Shown here in pieces: positions 5,507 to 39,189 of a DNA stretch of 52,506 bases. The first letter of the stretch is position 1, and the number at the start of each line of letters is the position of its first letter. The position numbers and the translations under genes were made by a program. The notes under the pieces were generated by a model that had not been told where the DNA came from, did no database searches, and worked only from the letters and a program-made list of their open reading frames with translations. Source of the stretch: Neolecta irregularis DAH-3 (Eukaryota); assembly GCA_001929475.1 (NCBI GenBank), contig LXFE01000143.1, positions 1-52,506 of the forward strand, read 5' to 3'.

Positions 5507-7995
5507 TTAGCCAGTCATTACTCTCTCCAGTTTTGAAGCCCGTAGTTCTTTTAGCCGTGCCTCCATTTCAGGTACAGTGCGAAGATTGATTTCTAAGTTT
5601 TGTTTTTCCTCTTCTAATGCAAGTCGTTTTTCAACGTCCAATTTACAAAACACATACCCTCCATGTCCATCGTACTACCAGTTAAAATAACTCTAGAGGG
5701 CGAAATACTTGTAAAATATAATTGTGATATTTCCATAGACTTTGGCGATGACTTACACTGAGAAGCGTGATTCCCAGTTTAGCAGCATGAGTGTACAACG
5801 TGGTCTCGATATCCATCGACACCGCACTTGTACATTCATCAAGAATAGCATATTTTGGTTTATGATAAAACAAACGGGCCATCGCAATCAAATATATCAG
5901 TATTTGCAAACAAAGATGTATACCCTCTGTTTATCGCCTCCGGAGAGAGCCGAGCCCCATTCTCGTTCAGTGTCCCAACCGCCCTCTCGATCTACGATTC
6001 CTGAAATTTGTAATAATTCGAGAATGTGCATGAGATCATCGTCTGTGATTCCCCGGGCGGTCATTTCAAGACGGGTGTGTGGGTATATTACTTGATCGCG
6101 GAGGGTTCCAAGACACAAGTATGGTTTTTGGGGGATGTAAAAGATATCTTTTGAGTTGGGTTTACGTACCGTGCCGCCGTAAATAGGCCAGAGACCGCCT
6201 AGTATACGGAATAAACTACTTTTTCCTGATCCATTCGGTCCAGTAATGAGTGTATGTTGTCCAGGTTTCACATAAAAATTCAATTTTCGAACGAGTATGT
6301 CCCCGTTTGGTGAGATGATGGGGACGTCATCAAACACGATATCTCGACTGTCAATCACTGTCCCTCGGGATGCTAAAAGTTTACGGTCGGCATTGGTGAC
6401 TAGCTGTTTCTGGAAGTGATCCTTGGAGATATCGTCCATGGTTTCCAGCAATTCTGAAACACGAAGGGTGTATCCAGCAAGTTCGGCGATGTCTTTGTAA
6501 GAGTACATCAACCGCCCGATCGCATCTGAACTGGACAAGAGTAGTCGTCTATTTGTGACAAAACCTGCAATTAGAATTCTTTCAGTCAGGACGGGAATTA
6601 CCTTCAGTCCGACCACCAAGGCTCTTGTTTCCGATACCGGGAACCTTGAAGAACACGGGAACAGCGCACATGACGAGGCCTAGTGCACCCCAAAGATATT
6701 TGATCACGCTCAGGAAGTTAAATTTAGCTCTTCAGGGGAAAACTTACAAATCCTCCATCATTCCATGCCACAACCTTTGACGGAGAATTCTATTGATATG
6801 TTTTATCAATGCAAAGTATCCTCGATCCAGTGCCGTCCGTTCAATTTCATATCCCTGATAGAACGCAATTTCTTCAGAGTAATCGATCAATCGGGTATGC
6901 GTAAATCTGTACTCTCCTTCCAATCTCGCTTCTTCAGCAACATATTTCCCAAAACTAGGATTAAAAAAGGAGTTTTTATTAATAAACCATACGGTGGAGT
7001 TAGTGCTTTCATTACATTTCCACTGAGCTGAATAAGACAAGTCAGTGCAAACAGAGCCTCTGAGCCGACATTTCTAGAGAGTTTCCAATTATAGATAGTC
7101 ATATCGAGAACGGGTTTAGCGAGATTTGAAAAAATCTCCGCCAATGCATTGCTAAATTTGGCAACATCGACAGTGATCACCCTGCCGTGTCAGCCATAGA
7201 ATTCCACAGCGAGCTTACTGATCAGCGTTTTTGATGCGGTCGTCCAGATTAGCCAAAGCATAAAAGGTCATCTTCGAGAGGTATTGTTTGTGAATATGGC
7301 TAGTGAGCCGAGTTCTGTAAGAAATTGCGAGTTTGCATTGAAGAAAGGATATCTAGGTAGGCGTCAATGGAAATAGCAAGTCGGTCAAACCATGGAATTG
7401 GTGTAAGTTGCAGGAACTAAGTATTAAGATCGATTTCATAGCAAAAATATAGAAGTACCGGCGACTATCATCCACCAAAGTAGAGAAATCAAAAATTCTT
7501 TTCCTTTTCCTTTAACCTGGGGATAAGCTTGGATAGGAGATCTCTTTTACAAGCGCAGAAACAATGTGTCCATCTAATTCCGCAACGTATAAAGACACAA
7601 GGGTCCGGAAGACAAGAAATGCAGAGTACGAAGTAAGAAGGCCAAATTCTTTTGTTCGGATGCCAGGAACGACGATCTTTAGCAGTTTGTGCATTCGCTC
7701 AAAGAACGCGCGATTGATCTGGCATTAGAAATTTGTGTTTTTAAGCGCAAACCTCCGCTCCCTGCTTTCTACGACCATGCTTTGGTTTCTGGTCGGCTAC
7801 TGCAAGTCTGAGGCGGTTTATCCGATTATCAGCAAGGAGAAAAGTTGGGGCAGATACTACTGAGAGAATAAGAGTAATCCATGTTGCGCGAGTAATTAGT
7901 GTTCGGTGGAGAAGATATTTTTGAGCAATAGTTCCGAGAACTGAGCGGATATGTTTGTCTTCAAAACTATTACGCAAAGTCGACTGGCTCGACAT
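5507..7995 (-). CDS. PXA2: Peroxisomal ABCD half-transporter (Pxa2/PMP70-like), 11 introns
   Basis: Walker [10 protein letters not shown], signature [35 protein letters not shown]-like [22 protein letters not shown]; two introns need non-AG acceptors. Confidence 0.85.
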
Positions 7996-14305: not shown

Positions 14306-14434
14306 AATTGAGTTGCAGGGGCCAGAAATGTCCTGTATGCCATTTATATCTATCCTTTTGTTATTGTCTTCTTCATCTCAGCACGGTCAAATCGAGATTA
14401 CATTTCTTAGTTACTTTATTAATAAATGATTAGT

Positions 14435-17400
14435 TTAGTACCGGATCTTTTGAAAGACGTGCAGATTCCGGTAATGTACAGCTTTTACCAATATCCCCTT
14501 GTCGTCTTTAACAGACTGCTTTGACATTTCTCGTAACCATCTCAAAACGTCTATATAACGGCCCTTTTTGGCAAAAACATACAAGAAGGCATGATATCCC
14601 AACCTAGGGTTTAGGGGGTCGGCTCGTTGGAATATTTATACATACCATTTAATCCCTTCATTGGTAATAGAGCACTTGCAGTTTCGCGCCAACCCTCGGA
14701 TAATGGTACACTGAAAGTCCAGTATCTGAGATACCACGACTAGAAATAAGTCCATGATAAATATGATTCTCACACTTAATATACTCTCCCAGCGGCTTCG
14801 GGGAAAAGGAAATATATGCGTGTGTACGCATAGCCGCAAGAATGAGATTCTGAAAGATGTTTACAAGAACTGTATATCGCGAATTAAACTCTTCGTCGAA
14901 AAACATTGCGTTTCCCTTCAATCTCATCGAGCTACGGTAAACACAAACCAGTCAATTGGAAACATATACTTGAATATCTTTGACAAAATCGCGGTCCCTG
15001 GATTTTTGTTATATTCCACGGTCAACGTATCCTTGATATCTAAAGTGAACATTCGTCTTTACAAAGACTTACGAACACCATCGTACCGTGAATAGTCTTG
15101 TCGAACATCGAGCGTCTCCGTATTGAGAATATTCCCACAGTAAGGAAATTCTCGAGTCCCGACAAGTCGAGCAACTTTGTGATTATTAATCGTAATTTCA
15201 AAATTGACAAGAGATTTGTCTGGGTTGACAAAACAGCCGTATGCGGGGTTTCCAACAAGATCAGAACAAACCCCTCAAAAACAAGTACCGTCGTGCATGA
15301 TTTGGAGAAACTCTTGAGCATTGTTACGATCAGTCGTGATAAACAGAAAATCATCCACGATACGAATCAACACCTTCAATTTTAAATCAAGTTGACTAAA
15401 AGCACACTCACTCCACTCTGTTCCGTCAAAAATTTGATACAACGTCGCTCGAAATGGCCGTAGAAAAAGTTGCACAGGATAGTTGAAAGGACTGAGCCTT
15501 GGGGAATTCCCTGCACTTGTCTATAGTACCGCTTTCCAATCTACTGGTATCAGCCTAGATCTGGAAAATGGGCTACCTTGACCAGATTATTTGTAATATG
15601 CTGTGTTAATAAATTCAAAACCTCAGACTTCTCCATCAACCCGTAAACCACTCTGTCGACTAAAATCGAATGACGCATGGTATCATTGATAAGTTCATTG
15701 GCAAATTGTTCAAATTGCATCAATTCGAAAGATGGTCGGGCTTTGGTATAAAAGCGCCGGCGAGGACAGTCCAACTTGCAACAAACACTCGCATACTTTT
15801 GTAAAAGATATTCGTCTTCAGTCAACATCTCTTCAATAATCGCCAGCAATTGATCCTGCGAAATAGTATCAAAGCAAGCCTGAATATCTACCTTTGCGAA
15901 ATACAACTTTGGTCATAAAGGTAAGTGACAGAGGTGAGGAAACGCCTTACTTTGGGCGGGGACACTTTTTGAACGTTCTTAGCTTTTGATACATTTCTGT
16001 TGTAGAGAATGCAGAGGCTCCAAGGAGCGATGGGTCTCGTTGCTGCATTGTCAAGCAAGGCGCAATTATACCAGACCTTTTCAAACTGAAGGATGCTATG
16101 CACAGGCCCAAGCACAGAATTAATGCTCGACTGCAAATAAGTATGTGTAGATCCATTATCCCTAATTTCCTAGATCTGTAAGTCTTAATAGACAAAAGGG
16201 CGTTAACTGTTCTCAGTCCCCTTCTTCGGAGATTCATAATCGGCCGTACACCGGCTTCTTTAGGTAGTAAACGAATGAACGAGAAAGACAACTGTCTCCT
16301 CGCCAGAATCCTCGTTGCTTCAATCTACGTCAGCATGGAATACTCTAGGGAATATACCAATGGAACGTCCTGAAACATGGAATGCTTCAAATGATTCAAC
16401 GCTGGTTCCGAGATTTTTTTCCATAAATCATGTCGAAAATACAATACCCTATTTCGCGTCTTTGCGCATTCCGAAATGTAAAAGTGCGAACGGAGTAATG
16501 GAATCACAATGGAATCAAAAATCCAATAAATAAACTCTGCCAGAATTTCTTTACGTTTAGTGATATCCGAGTGGCAGGTTTTTTGGCAGAGTTGCATGGA
16601 CTTAGGAGATAACCAGGTCATTTCCTTGATCTGGAATTAAAGATGAACAATGGGTTCGTACCTTGATGTTTTGTAAAACTTGATGTAGGGAAAAGAGTTC
16701 ATAGCGTCGAAGACGAATAAAAGAGTCAATGTCTAAAGTTGAGAATTTTCGCCTGGGACAAATAGTACAAGACATTACAACCTGAAAATTTCGAGTACTA
16801 CCCCAAAAGGTCTTCGGGATAACGCGAGATATAGATGCTCGAATAAATGCAGATACCTCTTTATAAATAAAATATTGAAAACGATTACCTCGATATGCGA
16901 AGAATCAAGTTCCGTGAGACTCGATTTCTTTTTCGAGAGATATGCCAGTTGGCTAATAGCTATACTAGCTGCCTCGTTCGTAACGGTCAATGGAGCCTGA
17001 CTCATTGGCCATGAATCGTGTTCAATGATCTCCTCATGGAAATATTCGACAGACCCATCTAAGCGCTATAATAAGCAGCGCAAACGGCTCAAAACATACA
17101 GGAACAGGACAATAATATTTTACCATGGCAGAATAGGAACATCGCGAATGTAACTTGATCATACGCGAAACCACGTTTAAAAGATCCATCAATCTTGTTG
17201 GAATTTTGTATCCCTTTTGTCTTGCCGCGCTTAAGATTTCCTTGTCACGGACAGTATAATCTTGAAAAGGCTGAATTGTCTTCTTGCGATCAACAGTGCA
17301 AGTAAATACATTATGCAGTCCAAACTGTCGTGGAAACATGTACTGGAGGATAGTAGAGCAATGGTCAAGATCATCCGGGTTTTTATATCGATTAAAGATA

Positions 17401-18475
17401 TCTTTAGGTCAGGGCACAGATGAGGTGACTCCAGATACGTATTCGACGAAGACCGAACTGGACTTCATTTTTGATGTTGTAAGCTGGACGTGCGTAAAAT
17501 AAGCGAGATCGAACGAATTGAATAGCGTTGGGCGAGGAACTTTATAGGTTTAAAACACGATTCAAATGATTTGCATACGCGTGTGAAGAATTTAGACGAG
17601 GGTATTTAATTGGTTTTTCTGAGCACATCGAGTCCGAGTAGGCTCGTTTATGGTTCCTAGGAAGAGGTGGCCTTTTAAAATCTGGCACGGCGAGATCATC
17701 AAGGTCGATTTTTCTTTTTTTGTCAATTTTAGTGGGGATAGGAAGTGGTTTCAAATCACTCAACGGGGTTCCTATATATTTAGAAAAAGAATTACAAGAA
17801 CAGCGTCACCAGTCAACTGATAGTAATTATCCTTCTCGAGACGCACAAACAAACTAAAACTCAACAAAAGGAGATGCATCAATTCCTCTCCAATGCTATG
17901 CGTCAGTCTAGAGGAAATGTGTCAGAAACACATATGCAGCAAGTCTTGCCAGGTATCATTTCTGAGGGTACTGACATGTGAATTGGGGAATACGCTAACA
18001 AACTCGGCACCAGCAGGGCCAACTGCAGAAACAACGACGCGGTCGCTTCCCTGAGACTGTGAGTCTGGAAGGCAAAAGAAGAGGATACCCAGATGTATCC
18101 GTGCGTGAGAAGATTGTTTGGTTTTTCCTTGCGCTTGATTCCTTGTTTGAAGAGCATTCTAATTACTCGGTAAACTACCTGAATGTCAATGGGGATGGTG
18201 CAGAAGCATACATCTGTCTGTGATGCACTTGGAGGGGATGGAATGTGGTGTAGAGGTTGCGGCAGGGAGTTGCCATTCGAGCACACCAGGATGCCGTCTA
18301 ACAATTCGATTAGATGGAGATGCTCTTTAGGTAGATGTGAAGTGTCTTTCTGCGGAAAAGATACGCAAGGTAAAGCAAACTCGACGATGATCCTGAGTGG
18401 GACAACAGAGGAATAAAACCTCTTTAAAAGGGACAAGGCGGAGACGGGCTCGTATTGAGATGTAAAAGGTGGCAT
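14435..18475 (-). CDS. TERT: Telomerase reverse transcriptase, about 21 introns
   Basis: T motif FYISE...LYFRHDLW, motifs 1/2 IRLLPK...RPIMNL, motif A LYFAKVDIQACFDTI, B' GIPQGSVLS, C IRIVDDFL, D GNPAYGCFVNPDKS, MFPRQFGLHNVF. Confidence 0.95.
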
Positions 18476-19720
18476 GAAGATTGAGCTACATGAGCTGGAT
18501 TGTGAATCGAGTATCAAATTTCAAGGCCGAGTTCAAAGTATATACTGCGAATCAGGCTGGAAGTGGTTGGCGTTGCAAGGAATTGCTGAGTGTCGTGTCG
18601 TGAGGCATGTTAAACACTAGCAATTATCTCAAATGCGTATATATACATTTCATATCACTGTCGCTGGTAGAGGCTTGCAGCGATTGCCGCATTATGAAGT
18701 AGATATTATGCAAAACATTACTCGAGGGCTTTGTTAGGTCCAAGAGTTTCCCATTTTGTTTAGAGACGTATATCTTCATGCATTCTTGTTTGTGAGCAAG
18801 AAAAGAGAACACCGGAAGCAAATATAAACTCATATTTAGGATATCTATAAATCATAAATGAAAAGGAATGAGCTGTTTTGATAGTACTGAAATATGACAA
18901 AGTTTCCCTCTCAAGTATTACCAAAACCACCTTTCAATTTAAAGAGGGGACAATGGTTGTAAGGAAATTTCCAAATTACCCATAATTTGGATCCCTGTTA
19001 TTCATGATATTGTTTCCAGCACTAACAGAAGAATGGAATGGATCCTTCCTGTAGGCATAGGAATTCGATAGCTTGAACAAAATGAGATTATTCTTTATAC
19101 AAGGACTCTAGTGTTATATACCTTATGATAATATAAAATAGCTATATAATGTGATTACTGAAACATTCGGGCGGGTGGCCAACTGGTGTAATATTGTTTA
19201 AAGAGGCGCCTATATATCAGAGATTATTCATTTCATATGACTAATTTGTGCAAATGTCTCGAGAAAGGGTTATGCACAGCATACACAATGAGAGAAGTGT
19301 ACTTTTGGATGGTGGTTCGAGGTTGGGAAATGGATGTCGAGTGGGGGGCCAACCAGAATACCAAATATTCTAATACCATAATTAGCTACTCATCTCCATC
19401 TAGCACTCATCTTCCATTTACATATATTGACCAATTACCATGGTCATTCACCCACTAGAATTGTTTATCTGCATTTTGCATCATCTACTCTTAGCATTAT
19501 CGACCATAGTTGTGCATATACCCCAGCCCATCGTCTTCCTTTGTCATCTTCTATTTCTAGCATTCACCTACCATCTGCATCTACCATTCATCTACCATCT
19601 AATATACCATCTACCTCTAGCATTTTTCCAGCATTCACCTTCAAGCACTTAACCCGCATTTACCATCTGCCTCAAAATTTTATTCCATCAAATTCAAACG
19701 CATCTGCTCCTATTCTCCAA

Positions 19721-23179: not shown

Positions 23180-24679
23180 TTATATCATTTTGAAACATGC
23201 CTTCCACATCCCTCCTGCAAGACCATTCCCTATAGAAAGTTTCTCGGCCAAAATACCAGATAAGTTCGCATCAGGCTGTGTGTGAAATAAACCAGCCTGA
23301 ATATACAACTCAAGTACTGCATGTGCTTCAACATCAGTGTATGTTTCGACAGGTATCAATGTAGTCCCATCAATACTGTTGGTCACCCTTTCATCAAAAT
23401 GCTCAAAAGGTGAAGCTTCTTCAGCACCAATAATATGGTTGAGAGTAATATTTTTCTTTGGTTTAGAGGATGTCGTTGCAATAACCGCGCCATTTTTCAG
23501 ATGTCAGAAAGATCTAAAAGAAATGCACTTACTAGCTTCTTGGAACCATTGAGATAGGAGATAAACCATGATGCTAGAGCGAAATCATGTGGATGAATAG
23601 ATTTCAAATCTGCGGTAAAATACTTCGAGGGCACTGACAGAGCGGAGAAATTATCCAAAGTCAAGAGAACACTCGGCCGGTTCTCTTGATTCAGCTGTTC
23701 CATTAATGCCTGTAGAACTTCATAAGAACAGAGAGGATCGCGAATACCGCAACCGATTAATCGAGTAAGGTCATCTCCGAGTTGAATTGTCTTGTTTTGT
23801 CCAAAACTATACGACCGCGTGCATTTAATCTATGCATCAGGATCGAGTGTGGAATTTGGAATACTCCGCCCAAGGCATCCAAATTGGCATCTTTCGTTCG
23901 TTCAAGGAGAGCCGCAGTAAACTGGTGTTGATGATATAACCCGGAATTTTTGTCCAGGGAATAACTTGTTGTATTGTCCACCAATTCAAGCCCTGTAATA
24001 ATGTTCCAATTAACAGGGAAAAAGAGGAATACCTCTAGGAACTGCAATAACTATCCAGTCGTTCATTAGAGCATGTACTTGCGCTTGCAGAAGTAAAACG
24101 CTTTTTCCTGAGCCAGCTGGCCCCGTCAATAAACAGCGTCTCATTTCACTGGAAGCCTTTCCATCCAATCTTTGGCACAAGTCAATCGTTTCATTGCGGA
24201 TCACAGGAGAAAATTGGTAAAAGTATTGAAAGCCTTGACAGGGATGAAACACTTGCAGAGTAGATAGCTTTGCAGTGATCGCAGCAGAAGAAGCCAGACA
24301 GGAACCGCAGAGACTCGAATTTGTCAAAGAATCTTTCAATAACTCCTCGATATCGAGATTCTTTGGCCGTGCTGAGAAAGAACTGGATATTGGATCACAG
24401 CCGAGAGTTGCTTTCAGTAATGACGTCGTCTGAAAGGCCATATCGACTGTTGTCTTGACTTTATTTCCACCGCTGCCCTTGTCTTTCTTTTTAGAGGGTC
24501 CGTATCCCGGCTTGCTTGCTTTTTTCTTTTCTGGATCCAGTCAGTATGAACGCAGTGTAGGCGGTTTGATTACTTGAAGCAACAGCCGGTCCTTTGGCAC
24601 AAACTCGACTTGCCGAGAGAGCTCTGGTGTATAGTTTCAGACTTTTTGAAGCCTGGAGCGATATGCGCCGCAGTTTCAT
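23180..24679 (-). CDS. RSM23: Mitochondrial small-subunit ribosomal protein mS29 (DAP3/Rsm23); 4 introns
   Basis: P-loop LTGPAGSGKSVLLLQ, WIVIAVP, VLLTLDNFS, IHPHDFALASWF; last intron needs a CTG acceptor. Confidence 0.85.
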
Positions 24680-37780: not shown

Positions 37781-39189
37781 ATGGATCCGGTATTATATAG
37801 AATTCCCATACGGAAAGGACTAAGAGGCAGGATGTTAATGAAGGAGCGTTTAGCGCCTATTTTCCCCTCCCCTACCGAGTACTTGGAACTCTATTGCTGG
37901 GTACACCATCAAGTTAGTGCTGCTCCTGAAAACAGGAATCTGGGCATGGGCATCGAATATCCACGTTCTCGAGCTGTCGAATATAGACACAGCCTCGTTG
38001 TTGTATGGGCGAGTAAAGATCTTGCATACCTCCGATCGCAACATGTTTATGCCTGCGTATAGAATTGCTACTGTGTTATCGATAATGGGCGTTTCCAGTC
38101 TAGTTATGTTTTGGGCCTTTACCTCAGGAGATGTTATCGCCGCCCGTGGATGGGATATCCTGCCGCTGTCCTGCTTCGTGTTCTTGATTTGCCTTTTGAT
38201 ATGCCCTTTGAATATTCTGTACCGGATGGAGAGATTCAAATTTCTACAGTATTTTCACAATCTGATTTCCGTGTGACGTCTATAGGACATTCAAACGGGT
38301 GATCATTGGGGGGATTGATCTTGATAACCGGCTCGGGGATGTTATATTGGCTGATATCCTCACCTCTTACTCCAGAGTATTTGGAGATGTCTTTGTGATT
38401 ATCTGCATGTCATTCAGTGGCATTTCAACCACGTCACATCCAGATCGTGGATGTGCAGGTACTTCTTGGCTGGTACCTTGCTTCATCAGGTACTTAACTT
38501 GAGAATTACACTTGACTGCTAGTCTGCCGTCGTTCATTCGACTCCGCCAATGCTTGAAAGAGTATCAAAGTTCGGATGGTAATCTCACACATGTCATGAA
38601 CGCCTTAAAATACGCGTCAGCCTTTCCAGTTATACTATTTTCTGCCTTGCAAAAAAGTGATATATCTTCTAGTGACTCAGAGAGAAACTCTTTTGGGGAA
38701 CTGACTCTCTTCCGTCTATGGCAGGATCTTTTGTTAACAAATGTACTGACATCAAAGGGTCCTCTTCGTTGTTATAAACTCATTCTATTCATTCTATTGG
38801 GACGTTATCAAAGACTGGGATCTTACGTTATTGACTAAACCAGCTTCAAGCGGTTCCCCAGAGACATGGGGTCTGAGAAAACATCTTTGTTTCAAGAAGG
38901 ATTACTATTACATTGTGATAATTCTTGATTTCTTATTGAGGCAAGGTAACCCAAATATTGCATTACTAAACACTGTAGAATGACATGGAGTGTCAAGCTA
39001 AGCCCTCATCTTCATCAGCTGCAAGAAGCCGAAAGAGGCATACTACTATTTGAAGTGCTTGAGGTCTTCCGCCGATGGCTATGGGTTTTCTTCAGAACAG
39101 AAGCAGAATGGGTGAGGCGGAACCATAAATATGGTTTAGGAATGCAGGGAAATCCAGACATTAATCTATCCAAGGACTTTGAAGATTAG
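37781..39189 (+). CDS. ERD1: EXS-family protein Erd1; 6 introns (two GC-AG)
   Basis: FPLPYR, GDVILADILTSY, RLRQCL, NALKYASAFPVI, EVFRRWLWVFFRTEAEW. Confidence 0.88.

Follow-up and report, generated by a model that had tools for sequence, protein, structure and literature searches.

The AG end of U2-type introns is among the firmest rules of eukaryotic gene structure. Does the telomerase reverse transcriptase (TERT) gene of Neolecta irregularis depart from it, with an intron between motifs C and D that ends in TG, and if so, does this end belong to telomerase or to splicing in this organism at large? The first-pass annotation had claimed that positions 15253 to 15288, read on the minus strand, are a GT-TG intron, that splicing restores motif D and that retention reads an in-frame TGA. 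The stretch analysed, hereafter the window, was the whole 52,506-bp contig of N. irregularis DAH-3.

The TERT gene and the segment between motifs C and D

The gene at 14435..18475 is TERT, with the telomerase RNA-binding domain, reverse-transcriptase motifs and a C-terminal extension. The Pfam families Telomerase_RBD (E 1.3e-26 and 3.1e-11) and TERT_C (1.4e-06) were matched on ORFs of the window, and the public protein P0003 of N. irregularis DAH-3, named telomerase reverse transcriptase by its source, carries domains PF11474, PF00078, PF12009 and PF21399. With all 21 introns removed, the gene reads as a single frame of 1095 codons with 0 internal stops. The features concerned are the following.

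14435..18475, minus strand: TERT coding region, 22 exons and 21 introns (31-42 nt), 1095 aa, transcript-based model
15914..15950, minus strand: second GT..TG intron of TERT, 37 nt, 5' GTAAGG, CTTAC 8 nt before the end, 3' ATG, located shortly before motif A
15289..15373, minus strand: motif C exon (VDD), ending in MHD plus the first base of a Gly codon, with joints of run X2 (see below) on both sides
15253..15288, minus strand: GT..TG intron, 36 nt, 5' GTACTT, 3' TTG, phase 1, between motifs C and D
15275..15277, minus strand: in-frame TGA inside the 36-nt intron; retention cuts TERT short after motif C
15260..15264, minus strand: putative branch motif CTGAT, read by eye, with the putative branch A (15261) 8 nt from the intron's 3' end
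15073..15252, minus strand: motif D and E exon, starting with NPAYGC and containing FPYCGN, bounded by X2 joints

We take VDD to be TERT motif C, and the stretch from NPAYGC to FPYCGN to be motifs D and E. The stop-to-stop frames 15520..15278 and 15274..15062 (minus strand) are one frame, parted only by the TGA at 15277..15275, so that retention of the 36 nt does read an in-frame stop, as had been claimed; the first stop of the retention isoform falls at residue 877. Retention of the second TG intron (15950..15914) gives a stop at residue 690, and that site is also covered by the homologue alignment. In the relatives P0004-P0009, whose proteins were called from ORFs, a single open frame runs across the site of the 36-nt intron, and these relatives therefore have no intron there.

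Among the marks of a U2-type intron, the 36-nt segment has excision and a GT 5' end (GTACTT at 15288, in one of three placements of the joint); its 3' end is TTG rather than AG, and DNA run X1 agrees on these letters. U12-type introns have the consensus (A/G)TATCCTT at the 5' end and TCCTTAAC as branch box. A U12-type identity was considered for the 36-nt intron and rejected, its 5' end (GTACTTGT) and its branch region (TTCTGAT) not fitting.

Probable transcript contigs, DNA contigs and isoform scores over TERT

Two sequencing runs cover the gene, neither of which is recorded as RNA. Run X2 is labelled 'DNA?' and is available as contigs with the library type unrecorded. Its contigs match the window at 100% identity, contain exons only and skip 20 segments of 31-42 nt between 14400 and 18700; judged from these 20 intron-shaped skips, run X2 is most likely cDNA. 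Fifteen of the joints are listed, of which 13 read CT..AC on the plus strand, hence GT..AG in the coding direction, and two are TG-ended. The joint 15251->15288 skips 36 nt with a positional ambiguity of 2 nt, and one of its three placements is 15288..15253, GT..TG. The joint 15913->15951 skips 37 nt with ambiguity 0 and has ends CA..AC on the plus strand, that is GT..TG. The 5 unlisted joints of the 20 were placed from the public model and the piece boundaries, and all 5 are GT..AG. The remaining intron, 16768..16733 (minus strand), is predicted only and falls in a gap between two X2 contigs. These two TERT-covering contigs break at the predicted intron (5' GTACTA; region 16692-16768), which may reflect alternative splicing or low cover.

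The 36 nt are excised in these spliced contigs, and the product is conserved. The sequence of the segment is as quoted in the first-pass annotation, and the GT-TG placement that it proposed agrees with the skip. An AG junction in cDNA, the outcome that would have spoken against the proposal, was looked for in the spliced X2 contigs, and the TG junction was found in use instead. The main path of the contigs is the TG-spliced form, and no AG-spliced or retained form is among them, in contigs that omit rare variants, so that minor AG-joined or retained forms would not show.

Five isoforms were scored against a profile of 16 TERT homologues from which the public Neolecta model was excluded. The results were as follows.

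GT-TG, 36 nt removed: 1017.3 bits, the best of the five
GT-AG, 15 nt removed: 1006.5 bits
Intron retained, stop read as X: 1001.1 bits
GT-AG, 69 nt removed: 971.0 bits
GT-AG, 114 nt removed (public model): 932.3 bits, motif D deleted

The TG-spliced model thus gives a 1017-bit match, and its product has no gap across the junction in 16 of 16 homologues. Removal of the 36 nt yields the very peptide that the earlier claim had given for motif D. The three AG alternatives, two of which remove conserved residues of motif D, were rejected, being 11 to 85 bits below the TG form.

These results bear on whether the skip could be an artefact, produced by template switching of the reverse transcriptase or by a de Bruijn shortcut, the real mRNA being AG-joined as in the public model. 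There are 2 nt of microhomology at the joint, and X2 consists of contigs with an unrecorded library type, as such a reading would have it. Against it, the skip restores both the frame and the gapless alignment with all 16 homologues, microhomology is zero at the second TG joint, ordinary GT..AG introns account for the 13 remaining joints listed in the same contigs, and the AG alternatives score worse by the margins just given. We consider an artefact very unlikely.

An error or a polymorphism in the genome sequence at the acceptor, the true intron end being TAG, is a slightly smaller risk still. The DNA evidence is a single data set, possibly the assembly's own source. In the Logan re-assembly of DNA run X1, a contig with word depth 428 matches every base of 14400-18700, with 0 differences and no joints, and the re-assembled reads show TTG where a TAG would have undone the earlier proposal; as X1 may be the source of the window itself, this agreement is a consensus check and not an independent one. 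Moreover, the same A-to-T error at -2 would be needed in four separate introns (see below).

Finally, the 36 nt might be retained and the TGA read through or recoded, which would give a TERT with a 12-residue insert. The length of the segment is a multiple of three and the flanking frames are identical, as this would require. Yet the 36 nt are absent from the X2 contigs, the insert matches no homologue (0 of 16) and costs 16 bits, and the other three TG introns described here are not multiples of three. Retention was rejected on the lower profile score and on the absence of the insert from the homologues, and we give read-through hardly any credence.

The public protein departs from the transcript-based model at both TG introns. 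P0003 lacks 26 residues of motif D, and before motif A it has a 40-residue wrong-frame stretch, due to the second TG intron together with one missed intron; at the second TG intron, the public model takes the AG 7 nt further on, in the wrong frame. P0003 is also off the X2 joints by 2 residues at each of the introns 15374-15411 and 16631-16661 (minus strand), another GT or AG having been chosen.

Further TG ends on the contig, part of them predicted, and the anatomy of the introns

The GT..TG intron at motif D is no one-off, as TERT contains a second one and the genes for mS29 and for an ABCD transporter one each. To find junctions, 148 + 137 ORFs of the window were compared with Pfam, and junctions were then solved between ORFs carrying consecutive parts of a family; most of the junctions so guided had a plain GT..AG solution. 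The ABCD gene was picked blind, as a conserved gene with many introns. The two introns below are predicted from homology.

23498..23532, minus strand: inferred GT..TG intron, 35 nt, in the gene for the mitoribosomal protein mS29/DAP3, 5' GTAAGT, CTGAC 6 nt before the end, 3' CTG
5889..5923, minus strand: inferred GT..TG intron, 35 nt, in the gene for a peroxisomal ABCD transporter, 5' GTATAC, CTGAT 8 nt before the end, 3' TTG

The two ORFs flanking the mS29 intron match Pfam DAP3 at positions 104-204 and 203-309. At this junction (profile positions 204/203) there is no AG solution, and 23532..23498 alone fits. The public model P0019 runs into the intron and ends at its TGA, at 354 aa, about 100 residues short; full-length members among those listed for the family are mostly 400-500 aa long, with matches that stop at query residues ~340-350 (564 hits, E<=0.001). 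Scoring with a profile of 44 homologues gave the TG product, which aligned end to end, 371.4 bits, the sole AG option 335.2 and the public model 290.0. The junction lies, gapless, inside the conserved block G..l..G-avia.TS. A 77-nt GT-AG alternative was rejected on profile score. Two non-AG shifts, with introns of 32 nt and 38 nt, were only 3 and 9 bits worse than the TG product, so that the exact end of this intron rests partly on analogy. Among PDB sequences, the upstream ORF matches N. crassa mS29 up to the exon end, and the downstream ORF gave 0 hits at E<=1.

For the ABCD transporter, the public model P0169 takes out 5923..5675 as one intron of 249 nt. Within these 249 nt, 5888..5709 (minus strand) is an exon of 60 codons that encodes the Walker B and H-loop region, preceded by the 35-nt GT..TG intron and followed by a 34-nt GT..AG intron. 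With the exon restored, the match to a profile made from 45 homologues improved from 1003.9 to 1166.0 bits, and a gap at profile positions 598-656 closed. The other nine introns of the gene are GT..AG, and there is no indel at any junction. Gene prediction limited to AG ends thus mis-models TERT, mS29 and ABCD exactly at their TG introns.

The introns examined on the contig were distributed as follows.

TERT: 21
ABCD transporter: 10
EXS: 4
mS29: 3
RhoGEF: 2
Eight other genes, one each: 8

These are 48 introns, with 44 AG ends and 4 TG ends (2 TG ends in 27 when TERT is left out), a tally in which the transcript support for TG consists of the two TERT cases and 14 AG calls come from Pfam coordinates alone. 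Genes lie densely in the window, and their introns are ultra-short (31-42 nt in TERT) and have degenerate 5' sites. Other genes identified in it through Pfam are those for a Zn2Cys6 factor, a peroxidase, a TBC RabGAP, a RhoGEF, RRS1, a 668-aa PPR protein, Erv1, a SWIB protein, a ZNF598-like protein, Pex2/12, Nop25, eIF2A, a class IV aminotransferase, mL59, an AMP-binding enzyme and ATP11. The EXS-family (ERD1-like) gene, on the plus strand, seems to have a GC..AG intron at 38941-38978 and possibly another at 38721-38757; the latter (38721/38733..38757) reads as a 25-nt GT-AG or a 37-nt GC-AG intron, with an AG end either way.

Three scans of the whole window, all set aside for want of statistical power, gave no excess of TG over the other non-AG dinucleotides. 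When GT...NN segments were required to have open flanks only, AG was counted 165 times, against 68-191 for other dinucleotides, and with a filter on codon usage AG was not enriched at any threshold; as AG itself was barely or not enriched in these two scans, they had no power. The third scan, with a strict branch motif and a length requirement, counted AG 48 times and, among segments with no nearby AG, TG 11 times against 3-18 for the others. It recovered all four TG introns.

The TERT introns, whose sequences were read by eye, are 31-42 nt long and have 5' sites that are degenerate beyond GT. In those ending in AG, the A of a YTNAY-like motif precedes the 3' end by 5-9 nt, in one case by 13 nt. 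Strong putative branch motifs of the form CTNAY are present in all four TG introns, as CTGAT, CTTAC, CTGAC and CTGAT at 8, 8, 6 and 8 nt before the end (36-nt TERT, 37-nt TERT, mS29 and ABCD, respectively), and the CTGAT of the 36-nt intron resembles the AG introns of TERT in motif class and spacing. A pyrimidine stands at -3 in 3 of the 4. In neither TERT TG intron does an AG intervene between branch motif and TG end. Downstream of the TG, the first AG is 33 nt (36-nt TERT), 7 nt (37-nt TERT) and 42 nt (mS29) away; the ABCD intron, by eye, has no AG in its 35 nt or at the start of the following exon. Three of the four have no AG within 28 nt downstream, and use of the AG 7 nt past the second TERT TG intron would shift the frame. 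In two TERT introns, 15541-15576 and 16170-16207 (minus strand), an AG 3-6 nt after the branch A is bypassed and an AG at 9 nt is used, which fits a distance window for the choice of the 3' site; if the proximal CAG of intron 15541-15576 were chosen, the exon would keep an in-frame TAG.

Could the TG end be a regulatory device of telomerase, a deliberately poor acceptor through which full-length TERT mRNA stays scarce or conditional? Two of the 21 TERT introns end in TG, splicing to the next in-frame AG, 33 nt on, would keep the frame and lose the beginning of motif D, and in other organisms, as far as the human survey's account of TG sites goes, such acceptors are weak or serve as alternatives (PMC2374985). 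This reading is countered by the main path of X2, which is TG-spliced with no AG or retained form, though contigs drop rare forms, and by the like introns that homology points to in two housekeeping genes, mS29 and ABCD. We judge a telomerase-specific device unlikely, if less so than the three readings discussed above.

We are highly confident that 15288..15253 is a genuine U2-type spliceosomal intron of N. irregularis TERT, excised despite its UG 3' end. TG splicing recurs in TERT, where the contigs show it, and in mS29 and ABCD, where homology suggests it; the TG end therefore looks like a trait of this organism's splicing and not like a telomerase-specific device. In ultra-short introns, the 3' splice site would likely be set mainly by how far it lies from a strong branch point, at a short and fixed 5-9 nt, and the second catalytic step might take a terminal G preceded by U when this distance window holds no AG. 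The use of the putative branch point, the distance rule and the acceptance of UG by the normal spliceosome would all be part of such a mechanism. On the 48 introns examined, N. irregularis probably splices at UG routinely. With more reserve, we lean towards a stronger statement, that several percent of its introns (~1 in 12 on this contig) have UG as their constitutive and only 3' splice site, through a 5-9 nt ruler in introns of 31-42 nt for which the terminal G alone is required. TG acceptors as such are already known; that of TERT appears to be constitutive, to stand alone and to be frequent.

Meaning and comparison with known systems

A free-living fungus whose essential genes rely on TG introns with no AG nearby would be a natural system for the study of how the second step reads the 3' site. 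AG-only prediction has left the public TERT devoid of motif D, mS29 short of its final ~100 residues and the ABCD transporter missing the Walker B exon, and errors of this kind pass on to comparative work with the proteome, which is often cited for the origin of fungal multicellularity. If UG splicing is indeed routine, many public models of this 'living fossil' genome would be truncated or miss conserved exons at such introns. A search of the literature, the main text of the genome paper and one of its supplements included, found no published data on Neolecta splice sites; neither of these two texts contains 'intron', 'splic' or 'transcriptom', and the annotation may be described in the supplementary methods.

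In yeast, reporters with the 3' splice site changed from UAG to UUG and studies of the second-step fidelity factors Prp8, Prp18, Slu7 and Prp22 show that UG is ligated, the terminal G being kept, when fidelity is relaxed. There, UG ligation belongs to a crippled mutant state, whereas essential genes of Neolecta would depend on it naturally. Schizosaccharomyces pombe, of the related subphylum Taphrinomycotina, is like Neolecta in its short introns. It has a CTRAY-type branch motif near the 3' end, alike in motif and spacing. One report on S. pombe gives 99.94% of annotated sites as GT-AG, with 3 exceptions, and places GT-TG solely among low-count novel junctions that are probably aberrant (bioRxiv 10.1101/045922).

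Fungal annotations are 98.7% GT-AG (PMC7072748). The curated annotation of Ganoderma lingzhi has 22 GT-TG introns against 89,855 GT-AG, or 0.024% (PMC11590231). Neolecta resembles it in having the GT-TG pair, in a fungus, brought to light by the correction of AG-only models; TG ends at ~8% on this contig would be ~300-fold more frequent than in G. lingzhi, if the contig is representative (PMC11590231). Human short introns with truncated pyrimidine tracts are, in the summary of one report, spliced independently of U2AF and in dependence on SPF45, with no AG-reading U2AF heterodimer acting early (bioRxiv 10.1101/784868). By that summary, these SPF45-dependent introns are very short like those of Neolecta, and yet are still AG-ended (bioRxiv 10.1101/784868).

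The closest likeness is with the human TG 3' sites, which, in the survey's account of them, occur in 36 genes and are rare; each such site has a used AG no more than 28 nt away, and none acts alone (Szafranski et al. 2007, PMC2374985). The survey's conclusion there is that TG serves only as an alternative beside AG (PMC2374985). A TG-AG tandem of this human type was considered for the 36-nt intron and rejected, the next AG being 33 nt away and no AG form occurring in the contigs, where a minor form is possible. As in the human tandems so described (PMC2374985), the TERT intron is of U2 type, with an ordinary GT 5' end and cleavage after TG, and three of the four TG introns here share the pyrimidine at -3; unlike in these, no form other than the TG one is observed here or would fit a functional protein, and TG ends 4 of the 48 introns.
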